Origin: a virus
Virus record (IMG/VR): IMGVR_UViG_3300046777_002415
Coordinates: 15,499 to 79,498 of that record
Strand: one strand, 5' to 3'
Length of the DNA: 64,000 nucleotides
Of the stretch, positions 36,876 through 63,223 are shown one piece after another. Below the pieces are notes generated by a model. The model did not search any database. It was not told the DNA's origin and saw only the letters and a list, made by a program, of their open reading frames with translations. Position numbers and translations under genes: made by a program. Within the stretch, counting starts at the first letter, position 1, and each line of letters begins with the position of its first letter.

Positions 36876-36896
36876 GGGCCGGTGTGCTGCCGGCCC
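36876..36896 (-). promoter_or_regulatory. CAGCA-loop hairpin copy 1
   Basis: GGGCCGG-cagcaca-CCGGCCC. Confidence 0.7.
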
Positions 36897-36906
36897 AGGT
36901 AGGTTA

Positions 36907-39078
36907 TCAGAGGGCGATTACGACATCAGCGTTGACGGCATCACCTTCACGATGGGTGACGTAGATCACTTGGCTGCCCAGGCTCTGCAGCATCCCAGCG
37001 ATCCGGGCCGCATTCTCGGAGCTGGCATCGGCGGTCGGTTCGTCCAACAGCAACATGTGTTCGTCACCGTAGAACACCCTGCTCATGGCGATCCGGAGTG
37101 CCAGCCCGACCAGCGAACGCTGGTAGCCAGACAGCTCGGTGACTGCCACGCTGTCGCCTTGCTCGTCGACCATCAGCTCGCCGTCCTCGCGGTAGACCCG
37201 AGACAGTTCTCCCGACGTCGTGGTCGAGATCAGGTGGGAGGCGTAGGCCAGCATGTTGTCCCAGAGCTCGATCATCAGGTCGGCCCGGGACTTCCGCAGC
37301 CAGACCTGCAGACGCTTGCGGAGATCGATCTCGGTGATGAGGCACTTCCGGGACTCCTGCGCCTTCTCTGCTCTTTCCAAGGCATCCTCCGATGCTAACA
37401 GCCGGATTTGGTTGCCGGCGACTTGCGTCTGCAGTAGAGATTGCCGGTCCTGTATGGCCCGGACTTGCTGCACCGACTGGTCCAGCAGCAGCCTGAGCTT
37501 GACGATGTCCTCCACCGGCGGCAAAGCCAGTAGATCAGCTTCATGCTGCTGCAGGGCCATTAACTCTTCAGTTACTCTTTGCTGAAGGTCAGCCAACTTG
37601 GCTTGCAGAGAAGTCTGAGTGTTGACCCGGCTGGTCATGTCAGCCCAAGTGGCGCGGGCCCGGTCCATTGCGACCTTGGACTCCATCGTCGCCGAAGCCA
37701 GGTCCTCGATCGAATGGAAGCCCTGCAGGGCTGCGACGAAGTCGGCCTGAGCGTCTTCGAGCTGCTGGGTGATCTCCGCAAGTAGGTCGGCGGCGCCAGG
37801 GTTGTAAGCCTTCCGTAATTCCGCGACCTCTGACAGCTTGGTGCGGAGCGGGGTCTGGGCATCGGACCATTGCTGGTAGAGGGCCTCATAGGCGTCAACG
37901 GCCTCCTCTTGGCGCTTGATGGCAGCCAGGCGCTCTTCCTCATTGAAGGGGCGTTGGCACTCGTGGCAGACGCTCTTGTCTACCGCATCACGGGCAGATG
38001 CCAGCATGGCTTTCGCGGCGTCACAGGCGAGGTCCAGCCGGGTGCTCACCTCGCTCAGTTGCGCCAACTCTTCCTGCGCCTGCTGCAACTTGCCAGCCAC
38101 GATACTCGAAGCCCCTACCACTTGGTTTAGGTGCTCCTGCTTCTGAGCTAGTGTGTTGATGCGGGCGGACAAGGTCTGGGCCTGATCCAGCCGCTGTTTC
38201 CGGTGAGACCATGTCTGTTGCATGGCCTCGATATTGGCGGCTCCGATGTTGGCCCGCTCGGCCAGATCCGGTTCGAAGCCTTCCAAGGTGATGGAGGTTT
38301 CCTGAATACTGGCGTTCAGCGCCTTGACCCGGTCCTTCCGGGAGGTGATGGCGAAGTTCATCTGCTCCAGCTTGTTCGAGAGCGACTGGGCCTGCTCGTA
38401 CCGCTGGCGCAGGTTGGTCTCTGCATCCTGCATGTTCCGCAGCTCGTTGGTGGTTTCCTTGAGAGACAGGTTGTCATCCTTGATCAAGGTCTGGTACATG
38501 TCGACCTCCTCACGCAGCTTGCCAAGGTCCGCGACCTCACCAAGGCCAGTCAACTGCCCTTCCATGCTGGTGACGTCCTTCCCGACCATGTCGAGGATCT
38601 TGTCGACCAGATCGCTCTTGGCCAGCCGCTCGATGGTCTTCTGCAGCGCCGTGGCGCCGAACTCCAGCAAGGCCTGGGACTGCCCCTGCTTGCTATACAT
38701 CAGCAGTTGTAAGTCTGCAGCCGACATGCCGTAGGCTTCCTCGATCAGCTTGATGACCGGGGTTGTGCCGTTGGCCAGCAGGGTGCCGTCCTTGGCCCAG
38801 ACCTTGGCGCCCTTCAAAGTGCGCTCGATCTTGACGTCCCCGTGGACCGGCAGGCTGATTTCGAGGGTTGCGGTGGTGCTGCCCTCTGCGCCTCGGGTCG
38901 GGATGCGCTCTACCTTGTGGCCGGTAGCGGTCGGCCCCAGCAGAGCGAAAAGGATCCCCTTCAAGATGGTTGACTTGCCTTGGGCGTTCTCACCCGTGAC
39001 GGCTGCCAGACCGTCGGAGAAATCCGCCCGAAAGTCGTGGTGCTTCTTGAAATTCTCGAGATGAATTGAGCGGATCAT
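36907..39078 (-). CDS. sbcC: SbcC/Rad50-like SMC ATPase
   Basis: ENFKKH, GENAQGKS, Q-loop, CHEC hook, LSGYQ signature, LLDEPT, VTH. Confidence 0.92.
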   Translation of the reverse strand: MIRSIHLENFKKHHDFRADFSDGLAAVTGENAQGKSTILKGILFALLGPTATGHKVERIPTRGAEGSTTATLEISLPVHGDVKIERTLKGAKVWAKDGTLLANGTTPVIKLIEEAYGMSAADLQLLMYSKQGQSQALLEFGATALQKTIERLAKSDLVDKILDMVGKDVTSMEGQLTGLGEVADLGKLREEVDMYQTLIKDDNLSLKETTNELRNMQDAETNLRQRYEQAQSLSNKLEQMNFAITSRKDRVKALNASIQETSITLEGFEPDLAERANIGAANIEAMQQTWSHRKQRLDQAQTLSARINTLAQKQEHLNQVVGASSIVAGKLQQAQEELAQLSEVSTRLDLACDAAKAMLASARDAVDKSVCHECQRPFNEEERLAAIKRQEEAVDAYEALYQQWSDAQTPLRTKLSEVAELRKAYNPGAADLLAEITQQLEDAQADFVAALQGFHSIEDLASATMESKVAMDRARATWADMTSRVNTQTSLQAKLADLQQRVTEELMALQQHEADLLALPPVEDIVKLRLLLDQSVQQVRAIQDRQSLLQTQVAGNQIRLLASEDALERAEKAQESRKCLITEIDLRKRLQVWLRKSRADLMIELWDNMLAYASHLISTTTSGELSRVYREDGELMVDEQGDSVAVTELSGYQRSLVGLALRIAMSRVFYGDEHMLLLDEPTADASSENAARIAGMLQSLGSQVIYVTHREGDAVNADVVIAL

Positions 39079-40118
39079 TGTGCTGCCTCTCTGTAGTGCT
39101 GCCAGATTGAATGAAGGTCAGTGCTTTCCAGTGCGGCGGAAATGCGTGAAGGAAGATCGAGGGATCGGCACACGGCATGATCCACTTCAGGAACGATAGA
39201 ATCAGACTGGACATTGTTTCTCACCATCAACAAGTTCGGCCACTCCTTCCAGAGTTTGGTTATGGCCTGGGCGATGTTTGGAAGTTGTTCGCTCGGCACC
39301 GTGCCAGTCACTTCGATGAACTGGACCAGCTCATCCATGCGTACCGAATCTCCATATCGCAACTCCCGGTACCCATCAGCCTTGCTCCAGATCGGATGCT
39401 GGATGAACTGCTTCCCGTCGAACTCCCACAAAAACTTGTCTCCCACATCGCTGAAACTGGTCGGGTGGGTGTTGCCGAGGATGATCAGCCGACCGTTGTG
39501 CAGCGTCCGCGGCATGTGCTCGTGGCCCAGCAGGACGTAATCGAAGGTCTCCAGCAGCTTCTCGGCCCTTTCTGCTGTGAGGTTGAGGCTGGCGTCGTTG
39601 TGGATCAGGCCGGAGTTGTAGTTGCAGTGGAGGCAAAGGATGCTCGTCTCATCTCGACCAACGAAATCAGTAACCTCATCGAGCGAAATATCAAACAACT
39701 CCTGTGTTGCCATGTGGGGTACAAGATATACGTAGGCGCCACAGTCCCCTACGAAATCGAACCCGGGCTGGCTAACGCTGCCCAGAACGATCGGGCTACG
39801 TTCATCACAGTCGCCTGGGAGCATATCGGCAAGTAGTTGCAACGATCCGAGCTTCCCCTCCCTATTTGGCAAGTCATGGTTACCTGCCATGACTCGACAG
39901 CACTCCGCAGCAATCCTGTAACCCTGCAGGATGCCTGCTTCGTCATTGGATTCTGTATCGAATAGATCACCTAAGCAGTAAGGCGAGGTGCTGCAGAGGC
40001 TAAGGGCTTTGGTTGCTTGCCTGTATAGGGCCTCCCTCAACCTCAACCGCGAGGCCTGCGTCGTGTGTGATGTCCGCATCAATCCGAGATGCGGATCGCT
40101 GAAAAACCAGATGCTCAT
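39075..40118 (-). CDS. sbcD: SbcD/Mre11-like metallophosphoesterase nuclease
   Basis: SDPHLG, GDLFD, GNHD, LGHEH; start MSIWFF at 40118. Confidence 0.9.
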   Translation of the reverse strand: MSIWFFSDPHLGLMRTSHTTQASRLRLREALYRQATKALSLCSTSPYCLGDLFDTESNDEAGILQGYRIAAECCRVMAGNHDLPNREGKLGSLQLLADMLPGDCDERSPIVLGSVSQPGFDFVGDCGAYVYLVPHMATQELFDISLDEVTDFVGRDETSILCLHCNYNSGLIHNDASLNLTAERAEKLLETFDYVLLGHEHMPRTLHNGRLIILGNTHPTSFSDVGDKFLWEFDGKQFIQHPIWSKADGYRELRYGDSVRMDELVQFIEVTGTVPSEQLPNIAQAITKLWKEWPNLLMVRNNVQSDSIVPEVDHAVCRSLDLPSRISAALESTDLHSIWQHYREAAQ

Positions 40119-40702
40119 TGTTGTGCTCCCAAGGTCTTGAGTAGAACCCCGTTTCCACGGAGTTCGATGTGGCCCTCGTCCTTGAGTTTGGTGATCATCC
40201 GTGACACGTACTCCTTGCCAAGCCCCGCTCTCTGGGCCAGCTTGGTACGGCTCAGCGCCGGGATGAATATCCCGCCACTCTCTTTCTTCCCGCGGTTCTC
40301 CGCGATCTCCCTGATCAACATGCTGATGCGCTTGTCGCCCGGCAGCGCGGACATCATGGACTGCTGCAGGACTCGGTTCTGCTGCTGCGAAGCAGAACGC
40401 AGCACCTGACGGAGTGTTTCGGGGTCCGATAGACCTGCTGCCGAAAGGAACCCCACCACGCAAATGTCCTCAGCCCGCCAGGTAATCGAGGCAGAGGGCG
40501 GGCACTTGCAGTCGAGTGTCTCAACGCCAAGCCACTCGCCGTCGTAGACGAGGTGGGTGGAGTAAGCGTCGGGGTGATGCTTGTCCAGATAGGTCACGGC
40601 GACGATACCGCGTGACAGAAACCCGACCGTCGGTGCTGCGGTCGGGCAGTGAAGGATGACGTCCCCTGGGACGAAGGTTCTGTAGTCGGCGTCGTTCAAC
40701 AT
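40115..40702 (-). CDS. Crp/Fnr-family transcriptional regulator
   Basis: cNMP-barrel-like GDVI..FLSRGIV..GEWLGVE..RAEDIC, and Crp-type HTH LSRTKLAQRAGLGKEYVSRMITKLKDEGHI. Confidence 0.75.
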   Translation of the reverse strand: MLNDADYRTFVPGDVILHCPTAAPTVGFLSRGIVAVTYLDKHHPDAYSTHLVYDGEWLGVETLDCKCPPSASITWRAEDICVVGFLSAAGLSDPETLRQVLRSASQQQNRVLQQSMMSALPGDKRISMLIREIAENRGKKESGGIFIPALSRTKLAQRAGLGKEYVSRMITKLKDEGHIELRGNGVLLKTLGAQQ

Positions 40703-41121
40703 GACTGTGCTGCGAAAGTGAACATGGAATCGAAATCGTCGGTGGTGCCCTGCCAAACTGGCTTCTTTTTCCCCTCAGCCCTCACCACCTCCTCCCCTCG
40801 GTACCAAGCCAGCAGGTTCTTGGCCCGGTCGGCGTAGATGAAGGCGGTGACATGGCCGGCCCGCTGCCAGAGGCGGTGCTTGCCGCACTGCCCGGAGTCC
40901 AGCAGGGACTTGAGAGACGCTGATTTCTCGGTGCTCTTGGCCTCAATCAGGATCGCCGGCTTCTCTGGCAGCAGCCAGAGGAAGTCCCCGGGCTGGGCCG
41001 GCATGTAACCGCCGGCCGACTTCGAGTCGTAGAAGCGGTGGAAGAACGACTTATGCTCGCACTGCCACCGGTACAAAGCCTCCTGGATGTGCTTCTCCAG
41101 CCATTTGCCGTCATTGGCCAT
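40696..41121 (-). CDS. Holliday junction resolvase (RecU/PD-(D/E)XK-like)
   Basis: G..LE...PGDF.....LIEAKST. Confidence 0.75.
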   Translation of the reverse strand: MANDGKWLEKHIQEALYRWQCEHKSFFHRFYDSKSAGGYMPAQPGDFLWLLPEKPAILIEAKSTEKSASLKSLLDSGQCGKHRLWQRAGHVTAFIYADRAKNLLAWYRGEEVVRAEGKKKPVWQGTTDDFDSMFTFAAQSC

Positions 41122-41848
41122 GGTGGCCTCCGAGGATGCTCAAGGCAGTGAAGCGGACGTCCGGATCCATGTCAGGCTGCGTGAACCACTTCAGGCTGGA
41201 CGGCCTGAGTGAGGAGAACGGCATGCCCTTGTGCTTGCCGAACGGCACCAGACGCAGTTGCTGCGGGGCTCCAAGCCATGTCGCCATGCCTTCCAGAGTC
41301 TTCTGGGTCTGCTTCATGTAATGGTTGAGCAGCAGCCCAACCATCCAGCAATCGGCAAGTCCATCGTGAGCCTGCTTCGGCAACTCGGTGTCCAGCACGT
41401 ACCGCTCACCGACCAGATGGCTCAGGCGGTGATTGGATGCGATCGGATCCAGGCGCCGAGCTGCCCACAGGGTGTCGATCATCCGGTTGTGCGGCCATCC
41501 CGGCAGATGCCGGGCCACGATCGGCACGTCGAATTTCACGATGTTGTGGCCGACGAGGAAGACATTGGCGTCGTGCAGCATGGCGAACTCGTTGACGGTT
41601 TGCCGCCACCTCTGTGCCACCGTGCTGGACGGCTGCTTGCCTGCAACCCTCTCCTCGCTGATCCCGTGCGTGTCGAACGCCCCTTGCGCGATCGGCCGGT
41701 TCGGCTTGGCCAGCTCGTCGAAGACGACCGCCGTGCTGGGGTCACCCTCGACGAACATGACCGAGCTGAGCTGGACGAAATCGTCCTGCTTGGGGTCGGC
41801 GCCAGTTGTTTCTGTGTCGAAGCAGACTGCGATGGACTTCCTTGTCAT
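41111..41848 (-). CDS. DEDDh 3'-5' exonuclease (ExoX-like)
   Basis: DTETTG, GHNI..FD, IDTL, AHDGLAD, C-terminal PFGKHKG. Confidence 0.88.
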   Translation of the reverse strand: MTRKSIAVCFDTETTGADPKQDDFVQLSSVMFVEGDPSTAVVFDELAKPNRPIAQGAFDTHGISEERVAGKQPSSTVAQRWRQTVNEFAMLHDANVFLVGHNIVKFDVPIVARHLPGWPHNRMIDTLWAARRLDPIASNHRLSHLVGERYVLDTELPKQAHDGLADCWMVGLLLNHYMKQTQKTLEGMATWLGAPQQLRLVPFGKHKGMPFSSLRPSSLKWFTQPDMDPDVRFTALSILGGHHGQ

Positions 41849-41852
41849 AGTG

Positions 41853-42299
41853 TCAAACCCTCCCAGTTGAACCGAAGCCACCTTCTCGGTTGCTGGCACT
41901 CAGCTCCTCAGCTTCTGCCAGATCGACGCGGTAGAACGGTAGGAACATTGCCTGACAGATGCGCTCACCAGGGTTGATGTAGTAGGTATCGTCGCCGCGA
42001 TTCCAGACCGAGACCTTTACCTCGTCCCGATAGTCTGGGTCGATCACCCCGATCAGGTTACCGAGGACGACGCCGTGCTTGTGCCCAAGGCCGGAGCGCG
42101 GGGTCAGCAGCATGACGATCGATTCCGGCACCTCGAAGATCAACCCGGTCGGCAGCAGAATGGTCTGCCCAGGGGCGAGGGTGGTTCTGGCGAAGGTCGC
42201 TGCCCTCAGATCGATGGCGGCGGCACCGGCAGTAGATCCGGAGGGGAGGGGGTGGTGTTCGTAGAACGCTGGGTCGATGACTTTGACGTTGATCTTCAT
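41853..42299 (-). CDS. dut: dUTPase (trimeric)
   Basis: AAIDL, PRSGLG, GVIDPDYR, GERICQ, REGGFGSTG. Confidence 0.96.
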   Translation of the reverse strand: MKINVKVIDPAFYEHHPLPSGSTAGAAAIDLRAATFARTTLAPGQTILLPTGLIFEVPESIVMLLTPRSGLGHKHGVVLGNLIGVIDPDYRDEVKVSVWNRGDDTYYINPGERICQAMFLPFYRVDLAEAEELSASNREGGFGSTGRV

Positions 42300-42736: not shown

Positions 42737-42753
42737 AACTGCTCCTTAGTTTC

Positions 42754-43026
42754 CTAGTTCACCAGATCCTTCAGCGCCTTCGCCGGCTTGAACACCACCG
42801 CCTTGCTGGCCGGTATCTGGATCGTCTGGCCGGTGGCGGGGTTGCGGCCGGTGCGGGCTTCACGGTCCTTGACGTGGAAAGCGCCGAAGCCGTGGATGGT
42901 TACGTCTTCTCCGACTGCCAGGTAGTCTGCGATCCTGCCGAATACAGCATCGAGCACCCGGCCGGCACTGGCTTTGCTGACATCAATTTCAGTGGTGATT
43001 GCGTTTACCAGTTCTGCTTTGTTCAT
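42754..43026 (-). CDS. hup: HU histone-like DNA-binding protein
   Basis: MNKAELV..GFGAF...R.ARTGRNPATG..I.IPA....FKPAKALK. Confidence 0.95.
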   Translation of the reverse strand: MNKAELVNAITTEIDVSKASAGRVLDAVFGRIADYLAVGEDVTIHGFGAFHVKDREARTGRNPATGQTIQIPASKAVVFKPAKALKDLVN

Positions 43027-43068
43027 CTCAGTTCTCTCATTGATTGCCGGGGACCGCCCGGCGCGGGT

Positions 43069-46000: not shown

Positions 46001-46620
46001 ACCAGCTTGAGCCACTTGGCAGGACCGAAGCCGTTGACACCCTTGTACCCGTCCGACGAATCGCCGACGAGCGACTTGTAGAGGGCGACCCGGTTGAAGG
46101 GGACCTCGATGTCCTTGTCCTTGAAGCAGTCGATGAATTCGTGGCCGATGTTCAGGACGACGCTGTCCGATCCAAGCTGAGCCAAGTCGCGGTCGACGGT
46201 GTAGATCATGGAGGCCGGCAGATGCTTGGCCATCCAGGCGATCACGTCATCTGCCTCGACCGTGTCGACGACGACCTGGGTGATGCCCAAGTATTTCAGC
46301 AGCAGCTTGGTATGCTTGATGGTCTCGCTGATGGCGAACTTGAGCTCTGGCGATTGCTCGCGCTCCTTGCGGGCCTTCTTGTAATCAGGGAAGCGGGTTT
46401 CGCGGTAGAGGTTACCGCCGTCCCAGACAGCCACGACTTGCTTCACCCTGAAATCCTTCAGGATCGGGAGCAGGACGGAGTTGACGAGGTTGTCGATAGC
46501 GTGGCCGGCGGTGTTGACCGTCTTGCCAGTGATTGAGTCACGGTCACCGTCTCTGTCGGTGCCGGAGTGCAGGCTGCGAAGCGCAAGCCCACGAATATCC
46601 AGTAGGACGTAGCTGTCCAT
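43069..46620 (-). CDS. polA: Family A DNA polymerase with 5'-3' and 3'-5' exonuclease domains
   Basis: EADDVI, DRDL.Q, GDSSDG; DWET; motif A DWAGEELR, motif B KGVNFLSQYG, motif C IHDEL. Confidence 0.95.
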   Translation of the reverse strand: MDSYVLLDIRGLALRSLHSGTDRDGDRDSITGKTVNTAGHAIDNLVNSVLLPILKDFRVKQVVAVWDGGNLYRETRFPDYKKARKEREQSPELKFAISETIKHTKLLLKYLGITQVVVDTVEADDVIAWMAKHLPASMIYTVDRDLAQLGSDSVVLNIGHEFIDCFKDKDIEVPFNRVALYKSLVGDSSDGYKGVNGFGPAKWLKLVETYGDDGLQQLQDMLTGAGYNLLKKLAESGSDPLLEMIFRDLQNWIMCWDLAILHPSLVNSKTEISGKSIYLTPKWSTALPRADKLGTLLDAVGCQDLRQTLAPFMPNPPFILDASALDDEEGTLAQARELFAESPFISIDWETSAPVTDAFIEAANGREYVDMLSSTITGAGFTFGKNLEHTFYATVDHAGNNNLPAEFIPKLIDCIPAGTPLVIQNLYFEQTIYKNQFGRDLPPAHDTKVMSSHVDEQESSGLKDMSLRILGYKQLHYHDVIEKGTAMRDYSAEHVLQYGADDPLVTAHLYEFLKLQLLLEGTWDFVRQNEFPPIYLLSDAYLAGIDIDWQELDRLRIEDQEVFDTNMARLRELLRENQTDEVLQEGIRNLLEVEREMIDAKYAAAVKAKQLEENDAKSRMAEDIAALTLKIEERVTYRDMERVEKPIDFKMTAVQFSEVFEYLGLPALEKTTNKAWVAWKEATLGLDHPDSRAERILGLIRDLVDCLHQKNCTEKPKVQRLMELCREVKVEATPDDKRYETVGSELSLSSPLQMKALLYGMLALPLRIRSFDVTEERADLGLEGGAQANEDAILTAMATDAPEGSWKREALECLLKAKKAQTRNSNFYSKYPLWQHPKTGLVHPQLNSCGTETRRMSGSSPNLMQMPKRGDGIKFRNAVIPLKGHDLICSIDWAGEELRVGAGLSRDIEMLSCYIDGNVLKTLPDWMIEQLGPKFVERFRTSELRDIHSLTAAGIAGVPYEQFEEARHDDTHPDAKSYKKIRGDAKGVNFLSQYGGGPTKLARKLICDPEIAKDYLSAKKKLYSGYEDWREKSIEQLHSQGYLTTLYGSRRHLFSKLLTNDEGMRGYLERSALNSLIQGVCADYLKVVLTALYQRKTFQRHGAQFLAPIHDELVFSCHSSKAPSLIMEVHSIMTQGIPGLPCPLWAEPSLGPNFGTQVEIGPHPTPELINYAIDKALGHAEAA

Positions 46621-46641
46621 GATGCCTCCAAGGAAAGCCTT

Positions 46642-46668
46642 CCCGGTCTGGAGTGCTGCCAGACCGGG
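46642..46668 (-). promoter_or_regulatory. CAGCA-loop hairpin copy 2
   Basis: CCCGGTCTGG-cagcact-CCAGACCGGG upstream of the polA RBS. Confidence 0.75.
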
Positions 46669-46677
46669 TCGGTGGGT

Positions 46678-46749
46678 CTACTTATTCAGGTATCGCCAGG
46701 CGACGTATCCTGAAACTGCAATTGCCAGAACGTCGAGTAGCAGGCACAT
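46678..46749 (-). CDS. 23-aa single-pass membrane peptide (not in the ORF track)
   Basis: MCLLLDVLAIAVSGYVAWRYLNK; TGATG-coupled to terB. Confidence 0.5.
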   Translation of the reverse strand: MCLLLDVLAIAVSGYVAWRYLNK

Positions 46750-47168
46750 CAGGCCAGTCCGTACTCTTTCGGATCCAGACGCAAAGTGCGGCAGACCTCC
46801 ATGATGACGGTGTGCTCCTCCGGCTCGATCTCACCATCAGCCTTGGCGATCGCCAGCATGGTGAGCAGAACCTCCTGCGCGTGGTCGTCGTTGTCGGCGA
46901 TGTCACTGATCTCGTCCAGCATCTTCTTCTTGCCGATGCCGAAATCCGCGTCGAGGATGTTTTCGAAGCGGGTGATCGTCTTCGTGATCTCCCGGCCGCG
47001 GAAGGCTTCAAGCAGGTCATTGGCTTGCAGGAGCTTGGTCAGCTTGTCAGTCTCGGAACGCTCGATGGTTCCATCTGCTGCCGCCGTGAGCAAAGCCCCG
47101 GCGACAATGGCTTCCATCACGTTTTTGTTCTGGACTTTCTTGGCTTTGTTGAACAGGTTTCCAAACAT
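46749..47168 (-). CDS. terB: TerB-family protein
   Basis: AAADG.IE..E...IAKADGEIEPEE.....C..L.L.P. Confidence 0.88.
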   Translation of the reverse strand: MFGNLFNKAKKVQNKNVMEAIVAGALLTAAADGTIERSETDKLTKLLQANDLLEAFRGREITKTITRFENILDADFGIGKKKMLDEISDIADNDDHAQEVLLTMLAIAKADGEIEPEEHTVIMEVCRTLRLDPKEYGLA

Positions 47169-47190
47169 TTTGATACTCCAAAGGAAGATA

Positions 47191-47215
47191 CCAGCCCGGG
47201 GTGCTGCCGGGCTGG
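47191..47215 (-). promoter_or_regulatory. CAGCA-loop hairpin copy 3
   Basis: CCAGCCCGG-cagcacc-CCGGGCTGG. Confidence 0.75.
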
Positions 47216-47225
47216 CTTATTGATA

Positions 47226-47984: not shown

Positions 47985-47990
47985 AATAGT

Positions 47991-48114
47991 CTCCTTGGTC
48001 GTTTACATGTGTCAGCTCTTCGACGTGCTGTCAGGCTGCTGACGTGGCCTACTTCTGGTGCTGCAGATTCGGCGTGAGTTGAATCTAACAGCACCGGAAT
48101 CGGTTGACAAGAGG
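47991..48114 (-). promoter_or_regulatory. Structured 5' leader with multiple CAGCA motifs
   Basis: Nested inverted repeats GGTGCTG/CAGCACC, AGATTC/GAATCT, GTCAGC/GCTGAC. Confidence 0.55.
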
Positions 48115-49373: not shown

Positions 49374-49374
49374 G

Positions 49375-50708: not shown

Positions 50709-50710
50709 CC

Positions 50711-53476: not shown

Positions 53477-53498
53477 GGTTTTCTCCTGTGGTTAAGAC

Positions 53499-56330: not shown

Positions 56331-56343
56331 GGTTTGACTCCCT

Positions 56344-56793
56344 TCAGACCAAGTGAAGCTGCGCTACAGCAGACGGAAACCGCCGGCGCAGATAAGTGAG
56401 GTGATGGATGCGATACGTCCAAGGCAACTTGAACTTCATGACGGCCTGCAGGCCGTAGGGCCCGGTCTTGAACCGGGCTGGGAGGTCGGGGCAGATGATC
56501 AGTGAACCCTGGTACAGGTCCACTGGCTGATTCGATCCTTCGAACCAGCAACCGGTGTCGTCGACCAAGGTCCAGCGAACGGAGTCTTGGCCGAGGCCTT
56601 TGACGATCTTCAGGGACTGAACGTGGAATGTGCGGAGCACATTCGGGATCACATTCGGAGGAGAGTCGCAGAGGCAGATGATGCTGCCTTCAGCGAGGGA
56701 CAAGGCGGTTTCCTTGTCTGGACGGGGTGGTTTCTTCTGGACAACAGGCTCGAAAAAGCTCTCGAGCGGGCGAATTTTGGCCGCAGATAGCAT
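56344..56793 (-). CDS. Hypothetical protein
   Basis: ORF preceded by GACCTTGAGAG and a hairpin copy. Confidence 0.5.
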   Translation of the reverse strand: MLSAAKIRPLESFFEPVVQKKPPRPDKETALSLAEGSIICLCDSPPNVIPNVLRTFHVQSLKIVKGLGQDSVRWTLVDDTGCWFEGSNQPVDLYQGSLIICPDLPARFKTGPYGLQAVMKFKLPWTYRIHHLTYLRRRFPSAVAQLHLV

Positions 56794-56822
56794 GGTAGTT
56801 CTCTCAAGGTCACAGGACATCC

Positions 56823-56850
56823 CGCCACCCGGTTTGCTGTCCGGGTGGCG
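56823..56850 (-). promoter_or_regulatory. CAGCA-loop hairpin copy 4
   Basis: CGCCACCCGG-acagcaaa-CCGGGTGGCG. Confidence 0.7.
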
Positions 56851-56899
56851 AGTGGATTCAGTCTACTGCGGAAACGGGATCAGGGCAAACACGCCTCGA

Positions 56900-57196: not shown

Positions 57197-57198
57197 GT

Positions 57199-58534: not shown

Positions 58535-58562
58535 GTCGATCTCCAAGGTCAGTACGGAGCCC

Positions 58563-58578
58563 GCCGGTGCTGACCGGC
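58563..58578 (-). promoter_or_regulatory. CAGCA-loop hairpin copy 5
   Basis: GCCGG-tcagca-CCGGC, directly after a terminator. Confidence 0.65.
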
Positions 58579-58584
58579 AGGCAC

Positions 58585-58608
58585 AAAAAAGCCCGGACTT
58601 GCCGGGCT
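58585..58608 (-). terminator. Rho-independent terminator
   Basis: Minus strand AGCCCGG-caagt-CCGGGCT followed by a T run. Confidence 0.8.
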
Positions 58609-58651
58609 GTTGATTTCGGTATTTACCGAATGGGTGTTCGGTATCTACCGA

Positions 58652-58924: not shown

Positions 58925-59045
58925 GCTCCCCCTCCAGCGTGATTCGCCATTGGTTGTTGATGTAGATTGCCCGGTACGCCATGCCCTTGGTGTGCAGGTC
59001 GATGCAGATATTGACCATGTCGTAGATGGTTTCCGCGATGATCAT
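58917..59045 (-). CDS. 42-aa hypothetical protein (not in the ORF track)
   Basis: AGGAGG RBS, ATGA coupling, MIIAETIYDMVNICIDL... Confidence 0.5.
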   Translation of the reverse strand: MIIAETIYDMVNICIDLHTKGMAYRAIYINNQWRITLEGEHD

Positions 59046-59338
59046 GCGACCTCCTGCAGATAGCACTGCTTGACGTTGCTCTCGATGATTTCGTTGCCTT
59101 TCAGGTCGAGCACCTGGACCTCGTTCTCTGTCTCGATCCAGACCTTGGCGCCACAGGACAGGGGCTTGTCAGGGCGATAGACGATTCGCGCCACCTCGGC
59201 GCCGTCAGGGCCCAGGATGACCGCGGTGTGGCCGTAGCAGTTGCGCTTGCTGTCCTTCGTGGTGAGGACCGGGCGGTTGCCGCCGTCCTTGCTGTTGAGG
59301 CGGATGTTCGGTTGGGATACGTGGATGATCGTTTTCAT
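59042..59338 (-). CDS. Conserved hypothetical phage protein
   Basis: MKTIIHV.Q..IR.N....PVLT.K....VY.PDKPLSCGAKVWIET. Confidence 0.7.
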   Translation of the reverse strand: MKTIIHVSQPNIRLNSKDGGNRPVLTTKDSKRNCYGHTAVILGPDGAEVARIVYRPDKPLSCGAKVWIETENEVQVLDLKGNEIIESNVKQCYLQEVA

Positions 59339-59523
59339 GCTGGAACCTCCTGGGCTACCGCATGGCAGATGACGCACTCGGCATAGCCGTTGTTGTGGAT
59401 TCGGGCCTCATAGCAGCCCTTGTCATCCAGAAAGTTTCCGTGCTCGTCGACCAGCCAGTCGTGGTACTCCACGCCGGTAGTGATGAATTCCTTATGGTCG
59501 GGGTTGTTAGGGCAGACTTTCAT
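59335..59523 (-). CDS. Small Zn-ribbon-like protein
   Basis: CPNNPDH...CVIC; CCTTGGAGG RBS. Confidence 0.6.
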   Translation of the reverse strand: MKVCPNNPDHKEFITTGVEYHDWLVDEHGNFLDDKGCYEARIHNNGYAECVICHAVAQEVPA

Positions 59524-59545
59524 GTTTCCTCCAAGGTGATATGAG

Positions 59546-59569
59546 AAGGCCCGGTGCTGACCGGGCCTT
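59546..59569 (-). promoter_or_regulatory. CAGCA-loop hairpin copy 6
   Basis: AAGGCCCGG-tcagca-CCGGGCCTT. Confidence 0.75.
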
Positions 59570-59577
59570 GGGTTGGA

Positions 59578-59835
59578 CTAGCTGAAGCTGTATCCTTCCT
59601 TGATTGTGAAGTGCCTATTCATCTGGTCTGTATCCCAGCGGGAACCGGCCAGATCACGGATGGCGACATAGGCCTGTTGTATCTCATTGCCCGCCCGGCA
59701 AATCCGTCTGTATTCTTTTGAACCCACCGGCAGGCATTTCATGGCTATCTCCCACGCCGTGGCAGCAGAGAGCAGCTGGGTTTCGAGAATGTACGCGAGG
59801 CTGACGAGCTCGCTATCGGTCATGATCTTGGCCAT
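59578..59835 (-). CDS. Hypothetical protein
   Basis: AGGAG RBS. Confidence 0.6.
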   Translation of the reverse strand: MAKIMTDSELVSLAYILETQLLSAATAWEIAMKCLPVGSKEYRRICRAGNEIQQAYVAIRDLAGSRWDTDQMNRHFTIKEGYSFS

Positions 59836-59847
59836 GTTTGCTCCTGG

Positions 59848-60006
59848 CTACTTCACGTCTTTGCGGGATAAGCCCCTGACGATCGTCGAGATGGTGTTCT
59901 TGTGGACCCCGTAGAGGGCCGCAAGGGTTGCGATCTTCGCGCCGGCCTCGCGCCGGCCTCGGATCTCGCGGACGTCGTCGTCTGACAATTTCACTTTCCC
60001 TCTCAT
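59848..60006 (-). CDS. 52-aa stand-alone HTH protein (not in the ORF track)
   Basis: KLSDDDVREIR.....IATLAALYGVHKNTISTIVRG; GGAGG RBS; ATGA-coupled to the ligase. Confidence 0.65.
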   Translation of the reverse strand: MRGKVKLSDDDVREIRGRREAGAKIATLAALYGVHKNTISTIVRGLSRKDVK

Positions 60007-60899
60007 GCTGCGATGTCCTCCCTAAAGCGTTGGAATACTGGGAACCTCGGCGCGTCGACCACCCCGATGGTCACCGACTTGTAAGTCACGATCCGCCCAA
60101 CCAGCGTCTCCTTTTGGGCCCAGAGCAAATCCCTGTCGGCAGCCGTGAATCCGCCACCGATCGAGAACTCCTGACCGCTGGTCAGGTCTCGGACCTGGAT
60201 GGCGCCCAATGTGCCGCCGGCCACCTTCCCCTCCTTGGATGTGCTGCGCTCGGTGCGACCCAAGGCATTCTTCTTGGCCTCGTTGTGATTCCGTTCGAGC
60301 TCGTCGTAGCCGATGATCACGGCATCCGAGTCGCGCCATGGCTTAATCTTCCCGAGCAGGCCCTCGCGAGTGGAGGACCTCCCGTGCTTGTAGTAGCCGA
60401 GCGGGTCTCGGGTCATGGCGCCTTCCCAGCCAGCGCGGAGATACGATTCGTAGACCTCGATGAGCTGAGATTGGCTATCGACTGGCCGGTGTTCGACAAG
60501 CCGTACCGGCAAGCCCTTTCGCTGTGCTTCTGCGACTCGGTAGGCAGCAGACTGCAGCCGCTGACTGAAAGGGTGGTGAGGATGAGTGGCATCGTCGAAA
60601 ACAAAGAAGAACGTCTCATCTGTACTCCCTTCGAATGACATGACCGATCTTGTTGTTGAGTTGAAGGCCGTTTCCGACGTCGGGTCGCCAGTCAGCAGTT
60701 CGCCATCCAGACCGTCAAGCAAGGGGTTGCTGAGGATGGCCCGGAGCTCTTTATTGGCGATCGGTTTGAGTGAGCGGGACAGTGCTTGCCCACCCTGGAT
60801 GACGCACCTGATCCCGTCTATCTTCGGCGAGACGAGCAGCGTCTTGTTGATCGGCTTCTGCAGGTCAAAGGCAGAAGCCAGCATAGGTTTGAAAGTCAT
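60003..60899 (-). CDS. lig: ATP-dependent DNA ligase
   Basis: KPMLA, KIDGIR, LDGEL, VFD, EGAM.R, KIK, GGGFT, RFPVF. Confidence 0.93.
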   Translation of the reverse strand: MTFKPMLASAFDLQKPINKTLLVSPKIDGIRCVIQGGQALSRSLKPIANKELRAILSNPLLDGLDGELLTGDPTSETAFNSTTRSVMSFEGSTDETFFFVFDDATHPHHPFSQRLQSAAYRVAEAQRKGLPVRLVEHRPVDSQSQLIEVYESYLRAGWEGAMTRDPLGYYKHGRSSTREGLLGKIKPWRDSDAVIIGYDELERNHNEAKKNALGRTERSTSKEGKVAGGTLGAIQVRDLTSGQEFSIGGGFTAADRDLLWAQKETLVGRIVTYKSVTIGVVDAPRFPVFQRFREDIAA

Positions 60900-61138
60900 G
60901 CTGCCTCCTTGAGAGTGTTCTCCCGGTACTTCTCGAACGCCGCGTCCAAGATGCGCTTGAACAGGGAATCCTCGCTGGCGTAGTCCCACAGGAGCTGGTT
61001 GATCACCTCTCCGTCGAGGATGTCGAGCAAATCGATGTCCTGCTCCCATTCCTCGCGCTCGGTACCGTCATCCTCGAGGCGGGGGTCGGATTGGTTGTCG
61101 TAGGCCCGCTGGGCCGAATCAAATATGGCTTGGTCCAT
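60896..61138 (-). CDS. Hypothetical acidic protein
   Basis: GACCTTGGAG RBS; AQRAYDNQSDP. Confidence 0.6.
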   Translation of the reverse strand: MDQAIFDSAQRAYDNQSDPRLEDDGTEREEWEQDIDLLDILDGEVINQLLWDYASEDSLFKRILDAAFEKYRENTLKEAA

Positions 61139-61310
61139 CAGTGTTCTCCAAGGTCGTGCAGAGCCGCTCGGCGAGGGAAACCATGTCGAGCGGTTGGTAA
61201 TCCGGCAGTGCTGTGCCGGTGAGGAGGGCCGACTCGAGTCGGCCGATCTTTCTGTTGAGGTCGGCGGCTTCCTTGTAGAGGTTGCCGATCTCACGGTGGA
61301 TGTCATACAT
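61119..61310 (-). CDS. Hypothetical protein
   Basis: AAGGAGG RBS before MYDIHREI. Confidence 0.55.
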   Translation of the reverse strand: MYDIHREIGNLYKEAADLNRKIGRLESALLTGTALPDYQPLDMVSLAERLCTTLENTDGPSHI

Positions 61311-61479
61311 TTGGTACCTCCTTGAAGTCTGTGTATTTGCTCTCCTCTCCGCAAGCCTGGCAGTAGAAGGCCTCGTAGGTCGAGTGGACTTCCCAGTCCC
61401 CGGTGACCTTGCTCCAGTAGGCCAGGGCATCCACAACGATTTCCTCACTTTCACAGTGCGGGCAGATAGGGATGTTCAT
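61303..61479 (-). CDS. Small Zn-ribbon protein
   Basis: CPHC...CQAC; CTTGGAGG RBS. Confidence 0.6.
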   Translation of the reverse strand: MNIPICPHCESEEIVVDALAYWSKVTGDWEVHSTYEAFYCQACGEESKYTDFKEVPNV

Positions 61480-61524
61480 GGTTACCTCCAAGTTGTGGAG
61501 GCCGTCCTTGGCCGGGTGGAATCC

Positions 61525-61905
61525 TTACGCCGCCATGTCTTCTGCGACGGCAGCCAGTGCGGTCTTCAGCAGCTTCGCGTCGACCTTGATGGACGGTGCC
61601 TTCTTCTCAAGCACCGCGAATTCGGGGCAGCCCATCTTCAGGAATGCCTCCTTCGCACAGGACAGCTTGAACAGCACTTGGTATTGCGGGTGGGACAGGA
61701 AGTACTCGGCGGCTTGGGCCTGATCCTGCACGACGACTTGGTCGGCGAGGGACACGGTGAAGTATTCGGGGGAAAAGCCCGAGGTGATCATTGGATACGC
61801 CTCGATCAGCTGGGCCTTCAAGGCTTTAATCTCCTTCTCGATGTCGTCTTTCTGCTTGCTGAGTTGAGCAAGGCGCAGGGCGGTTTCTAGGTTGTTCATG
61901 GTCAA
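61525..61905 (-). CDS. Hypothetical protein
   Basis: GACCTTGGAG RBS; N-terminal coiled coil. Confidence 0.6.
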   Translation of the reverse strand: MTMNNLETALRLAQLSKQKDDIEKEIKALKAQLIEAYPMITSGFSPEYFTVSLADQVVVQDQAQAAEYFLSHPQYQVLFKLSCAKEAFLKMGCPEFAVLEKKAPSIKVDAKLLKTALAAVAEDMAA

Positions 61906-61928
61906 TACACTCCAAGGTCAAGGGTGGG

Positions 61929-62129
61929 TTAAGCGTGGACGATGTCGATCATCCACATGTTCAGTCGGCCGAGCCATCGGCCATACCAAGGTAGGCTGTC
62001 GACGTCGGCTTTGTGCAGATTGCGCAGCACCTTCTCTGTGCCCTCCGCCTGCTCCCGGGTGCCGACCACGATCTGCTGATAAGGGCCATAGACGACGGTC
62101 CATTGGAACTTTGAGTCTCTAATGATCAT
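61929..62129 (-). CDS. Hypothetical protein
   Basis: GGAG RBS; ATGA coupling. Confidence 0.5.
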   Translation of the reverse strand: MIIRDSKFQWTVVYGPYQQIVVGTREQAEGTEKVLRNLHKADVDSLPWYGRWLGRLNMWMIDIVHA

Positions 62130-62332
62130 GCTTGCATCTCCGTAATGAATTGAGAGATTTTCGAAGGAAGATCCGGCAGCTTGGAAAAGCTGAGGAGCAT
62201 CCGCTGGGTTTCGCCGCGATGGCGTATCGCCTGCTTGCGCAGGGATTCGGACAACGGACGGCCGGCCAGGTAATAGGCGACCGCCGCGATGAAAAGCTCG
62301 TCGAAGAGCCGGGTGGCGACATGAGGATTCAT
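62126..62332 (-). CDS. Hypothetical protein
   Basis: GACCTAGGAG RBS. Confidence 0.55.
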   Translation of the reverse strand: MNPHVATRLFDELFIAAVAYYLAGRPLSESLRKQAIRHRGETQRMLLSFSKLPDLPSKISQFITEMQA

Positions 62333-62359
62333 GCCAATTCTCCTAGGTCAATACGTGGG

Positions 62360-62380
62360 CGCCCGGGTGCTGGCCGGGCG
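62360..62380 (-). promoter_or_regulatory. CAGCA-loop hairpin copy 7
   Basis: CGCCCGG-ccagcac-CCGGGCG. Confidence 0.7.
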
Positions 62381-62385
62381 TTGAT

Positions 62386-62874
62386 CTATTTGCAGAGGAA
62401 GGGTTGGGCTTCTCTCAGCAGTGCCATGGCGTCCTTGGGTTTGGCTCGGTGCCAGTTGTTGGTTTCAACCGTGCCGATCTCGGCGCCGGCATAAGTCGAG
62501 TAGGCAGACTGCCTGTCCTTGCTGACTACCACCAGATACCCTTCATCCGACCCGTCATTGACGGCGTAGATGGCTTGCTCCGAGCGCTGGTACAGCTTGC
62601 CTGTCCAGCCTTCCCTGTTGAAGCTGACGCAATCGGCCTGTGGCTTCTTGGCCAACGTCCAGGCCCGATACTCAGCCTGATATTTTCCTGTCCTCTTGAC
62701 CTCCATCCAGGAGACACCGGACATGCACCCGTATGGGTAGCAGTTGGTGACTGTTCCCACCCAGGTGCCTGCCATGTTGATTTCCGGCACAGGGCCGCTG
62801 AAAGCCAGCGCCTGCGCCGGCCCTGGAGCGCTGAGGAACAGCGCCAGTGCGGCAGCCGCTACTGTGTAAGCCAT
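62386..62874 (-). CDS. Exported protein with signal peptide, beta-barrel-like
   Basis: Hydrophobic N-terminus with AQA site, AGTWVG motif. Confidence 0.55.
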   Translation of the reverse strand: MAYTVAAAALALFLSAPGPAQALAFSGPVPEINMAGTWVGTVTNCYPYGCMSGVSWMEVKRTGKYQAEYRAWTLAKKPQADCVSFNREGWTGKLYQRSEQAIYAVNDGSDEGYLVVVSKDRQSAYSTYAGAEIGTVETNNWHRAKPKDAMALLREAQPFLCK

Positions 62875-62996
62875 TGGAAGGTCTCGTAGGCTGCCGCGGC
62901 GATGCCGCCGATGGCGCCGCCGGCCAGCAGGACAACAGATATGAGCATAGCGGCACTACCGATGACGCCTGCGATTGCTTTGAGGATGATTTGCAT
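62859..62996 (-). CDS. 45-aa membrane peptide (not in the ORF track)
   Basis: MQIILKAIAGVIGSAAMLISVVLLAGGAIGGIAAAAY...; ACCTTGGAG RBS. Confidence 0.6.
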   Translation of the reverse strand: MQIILKAIAGVIGSAAMLISVVLLAGGAIGGIAAAAYETFQWLTQ

Positions 62997-63016
62997 AAGT
63001 ATCTCCAAGGTTGTGG

Positions 63017-63178
63017 TCAGAGCTGGCTGCATTGCTGGCAGTAGTTCTGGTATTGCTCGAGAGCGAAGCTCTCGAAGTCATAGAGGTCAGATCCAAGCTC
63101 GTAGGCGCGGAGCCTGAGCTCTTCTTGGTGAGCGACAAGGTACTGCTCGAAGGTGAGCAGAGGAACAGGAATGGGCAT
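63017..63178 (-). CDS. Small hypothetical protein
   Basis: GACCACGGAG RBS before MPIPVPLLTFEQY. Confidence 0.55.
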   Translation of the reverse strand: MPIPVPLLTFEQYLVAHQEELRLRAYELGSDLYDFESFALEQYQNYCQQCSQL

Positions 63179-63198
63179 GGGGTTCTCCGTGGTCGGGG

Positions 63199-63223
63199 GT
63201 GTCCCGGAGTGCTGCCGGGACAC
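63199..63223 (-). promoter_or_regulatory. CAGCA-loop hairpin copy 8
   Basis: GTGTCCCGG-cagcact-CCGGGACAC. Confidence 0.75.

Follow-up and report, generated by a model that had tools for sequence, protein, structure and literature searches.

CAGCA-loop hairpins coupled to a private Shine-Dalgarno tag in the early/replication arm of a temperate siphophage

The early/replication arm of the phage studied here carries a real family of CAGCA-loop hairpins, and the eight copies reported by a first-pass annotation of the same DNA are all confirmed. The element is an undescribed signal, most likely of RNA. A comparison with Rfam, as the annotation had suggested, returned no matching family. Hairpin and a phage-private ribosome-binding site (RBS) tag constitute one composite unit that heads each early/replication gene block; the annotation had noted the extended RBS separately but had missed this unit. 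The analysed window is a stretch of 64 kb from the 79,498-bp genome of a temperate siphophage, whose hosts are probably methane-oxidising bacteria of the Methylococcales. Our leading, still tentative, explanation is that the hairpins are mRNA punctuation elements, the loop of which would be read by a putative factor controlling the downstream block through its stability, processing or translation.

All eight hairpins are situated on the minus (coding) strand, to which every coordinate below refers. Their stems of 7-12 bp are closed by CCGG/CCGG in seven copies and by CTGG/CCAG in copy 2, as originally described, and the loops read CAGCACN (n=4), CCAGCAC (n=1), TCAGCA (n=2) and ACAGCAAA (n=1), with predicted folding energies of -12.8 to -24.9 kcal/mol. 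Seven of the eight have at least seven perfect pairs, whereas 200 first-order Markov sequences of 64 kb each, in which hairpins with at least seven perfect pairs were counted, yielded on average 0.11 and at most 2 CAGCA hairpins per strand. A scan of the whole 79,498-bp genome found no copy in the structural arm, where none had been noticed before, nor in the remaining 15.5 kb outside the window, and at the same threshold no intergenic copy was antisense.

Hairpin 1 (36876-36896; GGGCCGG-cagcaca-CCGGCCC; -14.1 kcal/mol) lies 3' of an SbcC-like gene and is followed by the tag GACTATGGAG at 36863-36872. Hairpin 2 (46642-46668; CCCGGTCTGG-cagcact-CCAGACCGGG) is immediately upstream of polA (ATG at 46620) and hairpin 3 (47190-47216; GCCAGCCCGG-cagcacc-CCGGGCTGGT; -19.9 kcal/mol) is upstream of a TerB-domain gene; the sites that accompany them, CCTTGGAGG at 46625-46633 and TTCCTTTGGAG at 47176-47186, are tag-like. 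The top window match of the covariance model, at 24.8 bits, is hairpin 4 (56821-56852; CTCGCCACCCGG-acagcaaa-CCGGGTGGCGGG; -24.9 kcal/mol), which has the tag GACCTTGAGAG at 56801-56811 and, as probable start codon, the in-frame ATG at 56793. Hairpin 5 (58559-58582, previously placed at 58563; GCCTGCCGG-tcagca-CCGGCGGGC; one internal U-G pair; -19.3 kcal/mol) stands between a U-tract terminator, 7 nt away, and the gene of a phrog_2554 protein, with its tag GACCTTGGAG at 58541-58550. The tag of hairpin 6 (59546-59569; AAGGCCCGG-tcagca-CCGGGCCTT; -18.2 kcal/mol) is CACCTTGGAG at 59529-59538. Hairpin 7 (62360-62380; CGCCCGG-ccagcac-CCGGGCG; -12.8 kcal/mol) begins 5 nt past a stop codon and its tag (GACCTAGGAG, 62340-62349) comes 15 nt further on, while hairpin 8 (63199-63223; GTGTCCCGG-cagcact-CCGGGACAC; -15.7 kcal/mol), with the tag GACCACGGAG at 63185-63194, begins 12 nt past the stop of a Cro/CI-type HTH gene (63236-63649).

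The composite unit has a constant order: stop codon, a G-poor spacer of 0-12 nt, the hairpin with a loop of 6-8 nt displaying CAGCA(C/A), a spacer of 1-21 nt, the tag and ATG. The stop codon precedes the hairpin start by 0-12 nt in seven of the eight window copies and is replaced by the terminator for copy 5. GGAG or GAGAG lies 9-15 nt 3' of the hairpin end in all eight, in agreement with the earlier statement that an RBS follows shortly; this was read by eye from the printed sequences, and for copy 2 the automatic Shine-Dalgarno distance had matched an earlier AGGC and was not used. The coupled tag is private to each phage, GACCNNGGAG in the window phage and AACCGGAGAC in a prophage carried by the cultured methanotroph Methylovulum miyakonense HT12. 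There, AACCGGAGAC and ATG come after each canonical hairpin, and about 16-17 of about 23 tags, read by eye from the listing, have a C(A/G)GCAC-loop hairpin. Since the prophage hairpins precede tag and ATG, since genes within a block overlap or sit 2-13 nt apart, and since copy 5 comes after a complete intrinsic terminator and before its tag, the hairpins are tied to the downstream translation start and not to the upstream gene end.

Among described systems, the unit resembles the start-associated sequences (SAS) and extended SAS (ESAS) of Cluster K mycobacteriophages (Pope et al. 2011, PMC3203893). In both cases an asymmetric, conserved tag containing the Shine-Dalgarno site occurs in one orientation before a subset of non-structural genes, and an inverted repeat precedes about half of the SAS tags and more than half of the tags here. 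Both are also lineage-variable. Nevertheless, the ESAS has conserved 17-bp repeat arms and a variable spacer, whereas the CAGCA family has free arms and a conserved loop, and the sequences, the phage groups and the hosts (Actinobacteria against probable Methylococcales) are unrelated.

The family is kept in distant relatives, with PolA identities of 41-46% and GC contents of 43-50%. Genomes have 8-17 copies each, the M. miyakonense prophage having 13-17, and in each genome with both arms seen the family is limited to the early/replication arm. Four genomes with GC contents of 43-58% together supply a combined set of 28 copies. All of these have CAGCA (28/28), the loops across relatives reading CAGCAC or CAGCAA, while the stems of 6-15 bp are unrelated in sequence; two double compensatory changes separate the orthologous hairpins at G002 24342 and L045 9191. 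Thus the earlier proposal of a recognised hairpin with conserved loop and covarying stem stands as regards the loop/stem pattern and its single-strand reading, but not as regards specific roles that it listed. The element is phage-private. The pattern CAGCAC-N8-38-CCGGAGA occurs 18 times in the 4.7-Mb Methylovulum genome; 14 of these matches fall within the 36 kb of the prophage arm, each of the 14 on the coding strand, and the four best matches of the covariance-model scan, a check proposed with the original description, are all in this arm as well; the remainder of the chromosome lacks the element, and no host REP family matches it.

These hairpins are not intrinsic terminators, even though they share with them a GC-rich hairpin directly past a stop codon and, in related phages, the same junction upstream of polA. 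At least five T in the 8 nt after the stem occur in 0/8 window copies, as the annotation had indicated, and in only 3/28 of the combined set (25/28 are without a U-tract), the loop is conserved, and phage and host use normal U-tract terminators elsewhere. One of them, AGCCCGG-caagt-CCGGGCT then TTTTTTGT at 58590-58608, belongs to a separate class and directly precedes copy 5, as had been seen before; therefore the phage employs ordinary U-tract terminators where needed. The junction upstream of polA is occupied by TerB in the window phage and by a different gene in G002, and is empty in L045 and the prophage; a CAGCA hairpin is at or adjoining it in hairpin-bearing relatives and a U-tract terminator takes its place in relatives outside the clade, which hints that the ancestral role of the hairpin there was transcriptional.

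The folded form is the sense strand, most likely mRNA, because the internal non-Watson-Crick pairs are 8 G-U against 0 A-C among 276 pairs (binomial p = 0.008; both kinds counted symmetrically), although G-T wobble is tolerated in single-stranded DNA too and this test alone leaves a DNA hairpin in play. According to the reading that we prefer, the hairpins would act in cis on the early/replication mRNA of the phage, and we infer a trans-acting reader that would recognise the single-stranded loop, the stem only presenting it. Such a reader could be a phage protein too divergent for sequence detection or a Methylococcales host factor, and its binding, or cleavage beside the hairpin, would set stability or translation of the downstream block, in a positive or negative sense. 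If this is true, a single means of control would reach all 8-17 translational units along a very long operon of the phage. A processing or stabilising site, one of the roles first listed, is possible; as with the RNase III sites of T7, dispersed same-strand intercistronic hairpins punctuate long phage transcripts. RNase III sites are roughly 20-bp irregular duplexes without a conserved loop, whereas the CAGCA stems are of 6-15 perfect pairs and the loop is conserved. Counting against the punctuation reading, the hairpin-to-Shine-Dalgarno spacing of 1-21 nt is loose for a steric translational operator, and a true U-tract terminator stands at the orthologous polA junction outside the clade. The search for a reader also drew a blank: Pfam and PHROG scans covering ~45 proteins of the window and 10 of the prophage turned up no family of RNA-binding proteins, nucleases or antiterminators, and BLAST detected no protein common only to hairpin-bearing genomes.

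The main rival to mRNA punctuation is control of transcription elongation, a possible but rather doubtful explanation, by which the copies would be nut-like antiterminator loading sites, or factor-dependent attenuators or pause sites, along a ~30-kb operon, with the loop as the site of the factor. As in lambda nut (boxA plus boxB, read by N), a small RNA hairpin in early operons has its recognition element in the loop and not in the stem, and the first window hairpin comes after an HTH gene of the Cro/CI type, just as nutR comes after cro. Three or four copies also stand ahead of the arm's only canonical terminator, and relatives devoid of the family have an intrinsic terminator right upstream of the polA RBS, which makes it plausible that phages of this group control read-through at such junctions. 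However, boxB combines a 5-bp stem with a GNRA-like pentaloop, is accompanied by boxA and occurs once per early operon, whereas the CAGCA loops are of 6-8 nt, no boxA-like element is beside any copy, no N-like protein was found, and 8-17 copies per genome contrast with lambdoid phages, in which nut sites number one or two and are promoter-proximal. Copy 5 is behind a terminator, not ahead of it, U-tracts are confined to the 3/28 copies, and in the Methylovulum prophage arm (40-60 kb) every strong sense-strand hairpin that resembles a terminator is a CAGCA copy with chance T-rich 3' sequence, leaving little there to antiterminate. The near-obligate pairing with the private RBS tag would also stay unexplained, and we do not retain the boxB-like antitermination site that had been suggested. 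It is unlikely that the hairpins are purely structural, that is, 3'-exonuclease barriers and RBS insulators without a specific reader, the loop being kept for folding or by descent. Their high stability (-12.8 to -24.9 kcal/mol), their location directly past stop codons, which is that of 3' stabilisers, and their G-poor flanks (8% G upstream), expected of an insulated ribosome-binding site, would suit this role. Yet descent fails to account for an invariant 5-nt loop core when all stem positions have turned over between and within genomes at 41-46% PolA identity, and to our knowledge CAGCA(C/A) is not among the unusually stable loop motifs; moreover, the motif shifts by one position and loops of 6-8 nt are tolerated, which fits sequence recognition and not a special loop fold.

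We regard as still less probable a DNA-level element, in which extruded or single-stranded hairpins would serve recombination (cassette shuffling), replication priming or a structure-specific nuclease. Copies at 47190 and 46642 lie on either side of the TerB cassette, gene content at the junction upstream of polA varies among relatives, and the phage has genes for SbcCD, a resolvase-like protein and a tyrosine integrase. Nonetheless, the common sequence (a loop of 5-6 nt and a tag of ~10 nt) offers too little length for homologous exchange, and the hairpins are perfect, with none of the extrahelical bases seen in integron attC sites. Their confinement to a single temporal gene class, and there to the sense strand, points together with the coupling to the RBS tag towards expression and not DNA metabolism, and the 8:0 bias of G-U over A-C favours RNA. 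The PeSL of T4-type phages, to which the hairpins had been likened, are ~100 bp long and defined by a strong sigma-70 promoter and a terminator stem-loop (Arbiol et al. 2010, PMC2839356). They are likewise repeated intergenic stem-loops with a Shine-Dalgarno site before early genes, sometimes at gene-content differences between relatives; the CAGCA units, however, conserve only ~15 nt and have no sigma-70 promoter at 7/8 window copies, and the analogy was abandoned. The annotation had noted one copy behind a possible -10 box. The remaining copy is hairpin 8, which has a sigma-70-like match (CTGACG-N18-TACAAT, 63227-63256), a consensus match only, that ends 4 nt upstream of the hairpin and would place the transcript start at its 5' foot; the number of promoter-like matches in the region is not above that of shuffles. 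A hairpin promoter was also among the initial suggestions; that the copies work as such, serving either a phage RNA polymerase or a modified host enzyme much as in N4 with its virion RNA polymerase, is very improbable. A hairpin does open each gene block, and the 50-70 nt gaps ahead of the blocks are too small for a sigma-70 promoter; yet no RNA polymerase or sigma gene was found among the window proteins scanned, the loops are of 6-8 nt instead of 3, and the distance to the sole other conserved element, a Shine-Dalgarno site by position and sequence, varies from 1 to 21 nt.

The 130-nt leader of a 252-aa gene (47985-48114) may or may not belong to the family: it has three CAGCA copies, a mini-hairpin UCUG-cagcac-CAGA, the tag GACCAAGGAGAC, a fold z of -2.05 and a promoter-like TTGTCA-N17-TAGATT at 48110-48082. 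A possible ninth copy, weaker than the others, is located at 61202-61219 (CCGGCA-cagcac-TGCCGG; 19.6 bits in the covariance model); its status is ambiguous, as it lies within a possible 63-aa ORF and yet has a GACCTTGGAG tag 37 nt downstream.

The early and replication gene blocks of this phage are each headed by a phage-private hairpin on the sense strand, which is defined by its loop, lacks a U-tract and is tied to a private ribosome-binding tag. The first-pass annotation had listed eight such hairpins and had seen none in the structural arm. All eight are in place on the minus (coding) strand, at 36876, 46642, 47190, 56821, 58559, 59546, 62360 and 63199 (copies 1 to 8), and across the whole genome no member of the family was found in the structural arm or the 15.5 kb beyond the window. 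The stems measure 7-12 bp and their closing pairs are CCGG/CCGG, or CTGG/CCAG in copy 2; the loops read CAGCACN (four copies), TCAGCA (two), CCAGCAC and ACAGCAAA, and the predicted stabilities range from -12.8 to -24.9 kcal/mol. At least 7 perfect pairs are present in seven copies; in first-order Markov sequences matched in length and composition, such hairpins averaged 0.11 per strand and never exceeded 2. A census of perfect hairpins of at least 7 bp over the whole genome yielded two separate classes: the CAGCA family and ordinary U-tract terminators, the latter at 58590-58608 (minus) and 15199-15225 (plus) of the window and at 15338 and 1137 of the genome. A stop codon lies 0-12 nt before the hairpin start in seven copies, copy 5 coming after a terminator instead, and by our reading of the printed sequences GGAG or GAGAG follows 9-15 nt past the hairpin end in all eight. 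A possible ninth copy (61202-61219) has a stem of only 6 bp and may fall within a 63-aa ORF.

These positions follow the layout of the genome (the window being bases 15499-79498 of a single 79,498-bp record; GC 58%), which we describe from our own rough ORF calls. The virion genes occupy the plus strand at 1-33 kb and include those for a 3010-aa tape measure protein and a 2274-aa central tail fibre; the sole integrase is a phage tyrosine integrase at attP (33715-34725); and the early/replication genes lie on the minus strand between about 64 kb and 34 kb. The early arm encodes a Cro/CI-type HTH protein, ATP-dependent DNA ligase, primase, SNF2 helicase, the RNR small subunit, SF1 helicase, a TerB-domain protein, PolA with a 5'-3' exonuclease domain, an HU-like protein, dUTPase, a DEDD exonuclease, a Crp-like regulator and SbcCD; the Crp-type HTH regulator and the HU-like protein (40115-40756 and 42754-43026, minus) lie inside the recombination/replication operon. 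Given this content of integrase, virion and early/replication genes, the phage is a temperate siphophage. A candidate for the lysogeny switch is an AT-rich divergent region beyond the window (genome 3164-4187), between a 202-aa minus-strand gene and small plus-strand genes, and the record may be circularly permuted, with the minus-strand arm running on across its ends.

Relatives were collected through PolA from IMG/VR, JGI metagenomes and GTDB genomes, and three of them carry the element, again on the coding strand. The richest, G003 (PolA 46% identical, GC 50%), is a prophage of Methylovulum miyakonense HT12, and locus L103 on NZ_KB913025.1 gave the same match; this provirus spans roughly 73 kb at about 0.92-1.0 Mb. 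It has 13 clear copies with the loop CAGCAC or CAGCACA and, by our reading, three or four variants (CGGCAC in a 12-nt loop, a 4-bp stem, a 13-nt loop, a CAGCAT copy). The loop is CAGCAA in the six copies of G002 (PolA 41%, GC 46%) and in the two of L045 (PolA 42%, GC 43%). Judged from these comparisons, the family is older than the window phage. It is absent from G004, G005, L047, L048, L050, L057, L062 and L102, which are relatives at similar PolA distance, and a further relative, G001, has a weak TCAGCA hairpin upstream of polA and nothing else of the family. PolA homologues at 55-74% identity exist in public assemblies; the relatives from our scans of IMG/VR, JGI metagenomes and GTDB all lie at or below 48% PolA identity, and the hairpins are thus compared within that range. 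Scanning IMG/VR with the pattern CCCGGCAGCACNCCGGG returned 72 single matches and no locus with a convincing further family. The PolA gene of the prophage has about 1520-1576 codons versus 1183 aa for the window protein, which suggests an insertion, possibly an intein or an extra domain.

The junction before polA differs outside the clade: in G004, L048, L050 and L057, a canonical U-tract terminator stands immediately before the polA ribosome-binding site, and in the hairpin-bearing genomes a CAGCA hairpin takes its place. The clade appears to have swapped ordinary terminators at gene-block junctions for a loop-defined hairpin with a private ribosome-binding tag. The content of this junction varies. 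The window phage has a TerB cassette between two hairpins (46642-47216), G002 has a different gene of roughly 160 aa after the hairpin (about 34250-34810), and L045 (40-110) and the prophage have no gene there; these differences may mark the hairpin junction as a hot spot of insertion, or intergenic insertions may merely be tolerated.

The tag is best seen in the prophage, where the unit consists of the hairpin, 6-18 nt, AACCGGAGAC, 5-9 nt and ATG. We read about 23 AACCGGAGAC tags before starts in its early arm, about 16-17 of them with a C(A/G)GCAC-loop hairpin. On a rough gene map, neighbouring genes of one block overlap or leave 2-13 nt between them, and nearly all the real gaps, of about 50-70 nt, consist of hairpin and tag; gaps of 50-70 nt filled in the same way are found in the window. 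The window tag, GACCNNGGAG, has 16 sense matches genome-wide, mostly before starts in the early/replication arm, and follows at least five of the eight hairpins, while G002 and L045 have an AGAGGCA-like tag. Beyond GGAG, the tag bases would add no complementarity to the 16S 3' end in its usual form. Since 10 of the 18 occurrences of AACCGGAGAC in the 4.7-Mb Methylovulum genome cluster in the interval 0.95-0.99 Mb, which belongs to the prophage record, the tag is not the normal ribosome-binding context of the host. An anti-RBS function of the hairpin was rejected: the loop lacks complementarity to the tags, and no sense-strand hairpin contains an anti-tag.

The hairpin itself is likewise concentrated in the prophage. 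The composite pattern CAGCAC-N8-38-CCGGAGA has 18 matches in the Methylovulum genome, 14 of them between 959,926 and 995,477, all on the coding strand, and the reversed control pattern has none. The four best covariance-model matches also fall in the prophage interval, with scores elsewhere of at most 18.6 bits among the 150 of 753 candidates scored. A host REP/BIME-type repeat, which would be dispersed in many copies over the chromosome and which the first-pass annotation had named as grounds for abandoning the idea, was therefore not found in the M. miyakonense genome, bare hairpins outside the prophage being covered to the extent of those 150 candidates.

Is the element a known one? The Rfam scan proposed earlier matched the CAGCA hairpins to no curated covariance model: nothing in the window reached a gathering score, and at E up to 1 the prophage arm gave nothing and the window gave only asX2, a chance-level match (23 bits against a gathering score of 70) that covers, on the opposite strand, hairpin 5 and the terminator before it. 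The boxB-like antitermination site suggested in the first-pass annotation does not agree with the data either. The boxB hairpin of lambda has a stem of about 5 bp and a GNRA-like pentaloop (GAAAA/GAAGA type), whereas the loops here are CAGCAC, CAGCAA, CAGCACN, TCAGCA or ACAGCAAA on stems of 6-15 bp. A lambda-type nut site also has a boxA (CGCTCTTA-like) a few nt before the hairpin, but YGCTCTTWA, with 1 mismatch allowed, was matched less often than in shuffles, and no match stood upstream of a hairpin. Beside the first site, an N-type arginine-rich antiterminator was sought and neither a Pfam/PHROG match nor an obviously arginine-rich small protein was seen; such proteins are short and variable enough to escape notice. 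Integron attC sites are imperfect hairpins of 57-141 bp with extrahelical bases and conserved R/L boxes beside an integron integrase, in contrast to the essentially perfect hairpins of 18-36 nt described here, in a genome whose only integrase is the phage enzyme at attP. Mimicry of a tRNA anticodon or T-loop, an IRE-like loop, an RNase P mini-helix, CRISPR solitary repeats and pairing to 16S helix 34 were considered and set aside, as they seem not to suit the loop or stem features. Strand bias of a type III restriction site was rejected as well, the CAGCA and CAGCAC totals being near-symmetric once the hairpin copies are removed. The T4-type cassette (PeSL) carries a strong sigma-70-type promoter within the repeated unit (PMC2839356), and this proposal of the first-pass annotation also fails, as only a promoter-like match near hairpin 8 was found. 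By analogy, the nearest described system is SAS/ESAS of Cluster K mycobacteriophages, in which a private SD-containing tag of unknown function precedes a subset of non-structural genes and is itself preceded by an inverted repeat in about half of the cases (PMC3203893). Our tags share the conserved, asymmetric, SD-containing character and the position just upstream of the start codons of a subset of non-structural genes, but the SAS sequence GGGATAGGAGCCC differs from them, so that this is analogy and not homology. The ESAS design is moreover reversed: its 17-bp inverted repeats are conserved around a variable spacer (PMC3203893), while here the arms vary and the loop is conserved.

In order to separate RNA from DNA, G-U and A-C pairs were treated symmetrically, and a non-Watson-Crick pair was counted only where Watson-Crick pairs stood on both sides of it. 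The covariance model (R1; 24 positions, little information, E-values of 1e-4 to 1) places 7-nt loops out of register, and base pairs were therefore counted by our own script. The 28 copies of the four genomes contain 267 Watson-Crick pairs, 8 G-U, 0 A-C and 1 other mismatch (two-sided binomial p = 0.008). The sense strand, in single-stranded form, is therefore where selection acts on the structure. Combined with the confinement to one class of transcription unit, the G-U bias points to mRNA as the folded form, with sense single-stranded DNA as a less likely one, and we consider an element acting on DNA improbable. A hairpin promoter, one of the roles proposed at first, is hardly credible: N4-type promoters have a 5-7 bp stem and a 3-nt loop and are read by a phage RNA polymerase, whereas the loops here have 6-8 nt and the proteins scanned showed no RNA polymerase domain. 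A hairpin serving structure only is unlikely. Two changes, each present on both sides of the stem, distinguish the members of the orthologous pair G002 24342 / L045 9191 (GGCAG/CTGCC versus GGGAA/TTCCC), and in an alignment of 27 copies the stem sequence is shared neither within nor between genomes, CAGCA being the sole invariant part.

Control of transcription elongation is a stronger contender, if still a doubtful one, and draws mainly on the terminators at orthologous junctions in relatives. With an intrinsic terminator the elements share the GC-rich hairpin but not the immediate U-tract; as first noted, none of the eight window copies has at least five T in the 8 nt after the stem, and only 3 of all 28 do. 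The reading we favour, tentatively and at somewhat less than even chances, is post-transcriptional: the loop would be read in trans, and loop-specific binding or cleavage would set the stability or translation of the downstream block. The hairpin unit would belong to the downstream translation start, because copy 5 stands behind a complete terminator, where a further 3' hairpin is redundant, and because every canonical prophage copy has the tag after the hairpin. At copy 5 the textbook U-tract terminator (58590-58608) is followed after 7 nt by the CAGCA hairpin (58559-58582, minus) and a tagged ribosome-binding site; this leaves no space for a sigma-70 promoter, thus the phrog_2554 gene downstream must rely on read-through.

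Long phage operons are known to be punctuated internally by terminators with antiterminators, RNase III sites or internal promoters. It is conceivable, though we would not presume it, that the CAGCA loop and tag form a phage-specific mRNA address, by which a dedicated reader would switch a whole regulon of 8-17 translational units on or off. Such an address would have its DNA counterpart in the stoperators of Cluster A mycobacteriophages or could, alternatively, be a natural version of the hairpin-plus-nuclease insulators of synthetic operons. A specific reader, if there is one, would be a new regulator, acting post-transcriptionally or on elongation, whose RNA address is very compact and portable; it would help to explain early-gene timing in methanotroph phages and could serve as a tool for gene insulation in synthetic operons. 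The 13-17 copies in the prophage of the cultured M. miyakonense HT12 make the question accessible at the bench.

Pfam and PHROG assigned none of about 45 window and 10 prophage proteins to an RNA-binding, nuclease, antiterminator, sigma or RNA polymerase family. A comparison of all window ORFs with G001-G005 (tblastn and blastp) detected no protein confined to hairpin-bearing genomes, except TerB and a 62-aa acidic protein that the prophage shares; neither looks RNA-binding. A Methylococcales isolate carries one relative as a prophage, and a second polA relative belongs to a metagenome bin of Methylococcales; therefore a reader from this host lineage is as possible as a fast-evolving phage protein. 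No convincing conserved UGCUG-loop kissing partner was found either; the hairpins seen were one with a CUGCUG loop inside a CDS at 40961-40982 and one with a GCAGCA loop in the prophage (42165-42196; L031 2165-2196). The latter has a 13-bp stem, lies on the strand opposite to the early genes and is the only strong antisense copy.

A CAGCA hairpin also precedes the gene of a basic 149-aa protein in both the window phage (56344-56793, minus) and G002 (40191-40625). This protein (pI 9.3; 25% identity between the two over 138 aa) is encoded directly upstream of the primase gene, has no Pfam or PHROG match and was not detected in the prophage or in the relatives lacking the family. Finally, a 130-nt leader at 47985-48114 (minus) contains three CAGCA copies. 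One CAGCAC can be hidden in a long hairpin or exposed by a mini-hairpin, UCUG-cagcac-CAGA. Because a promoter-like TTGTCA-N17-TAGATT falls within the 5' arm of the long hairpin, two transcript forms of this leader might fold differently.
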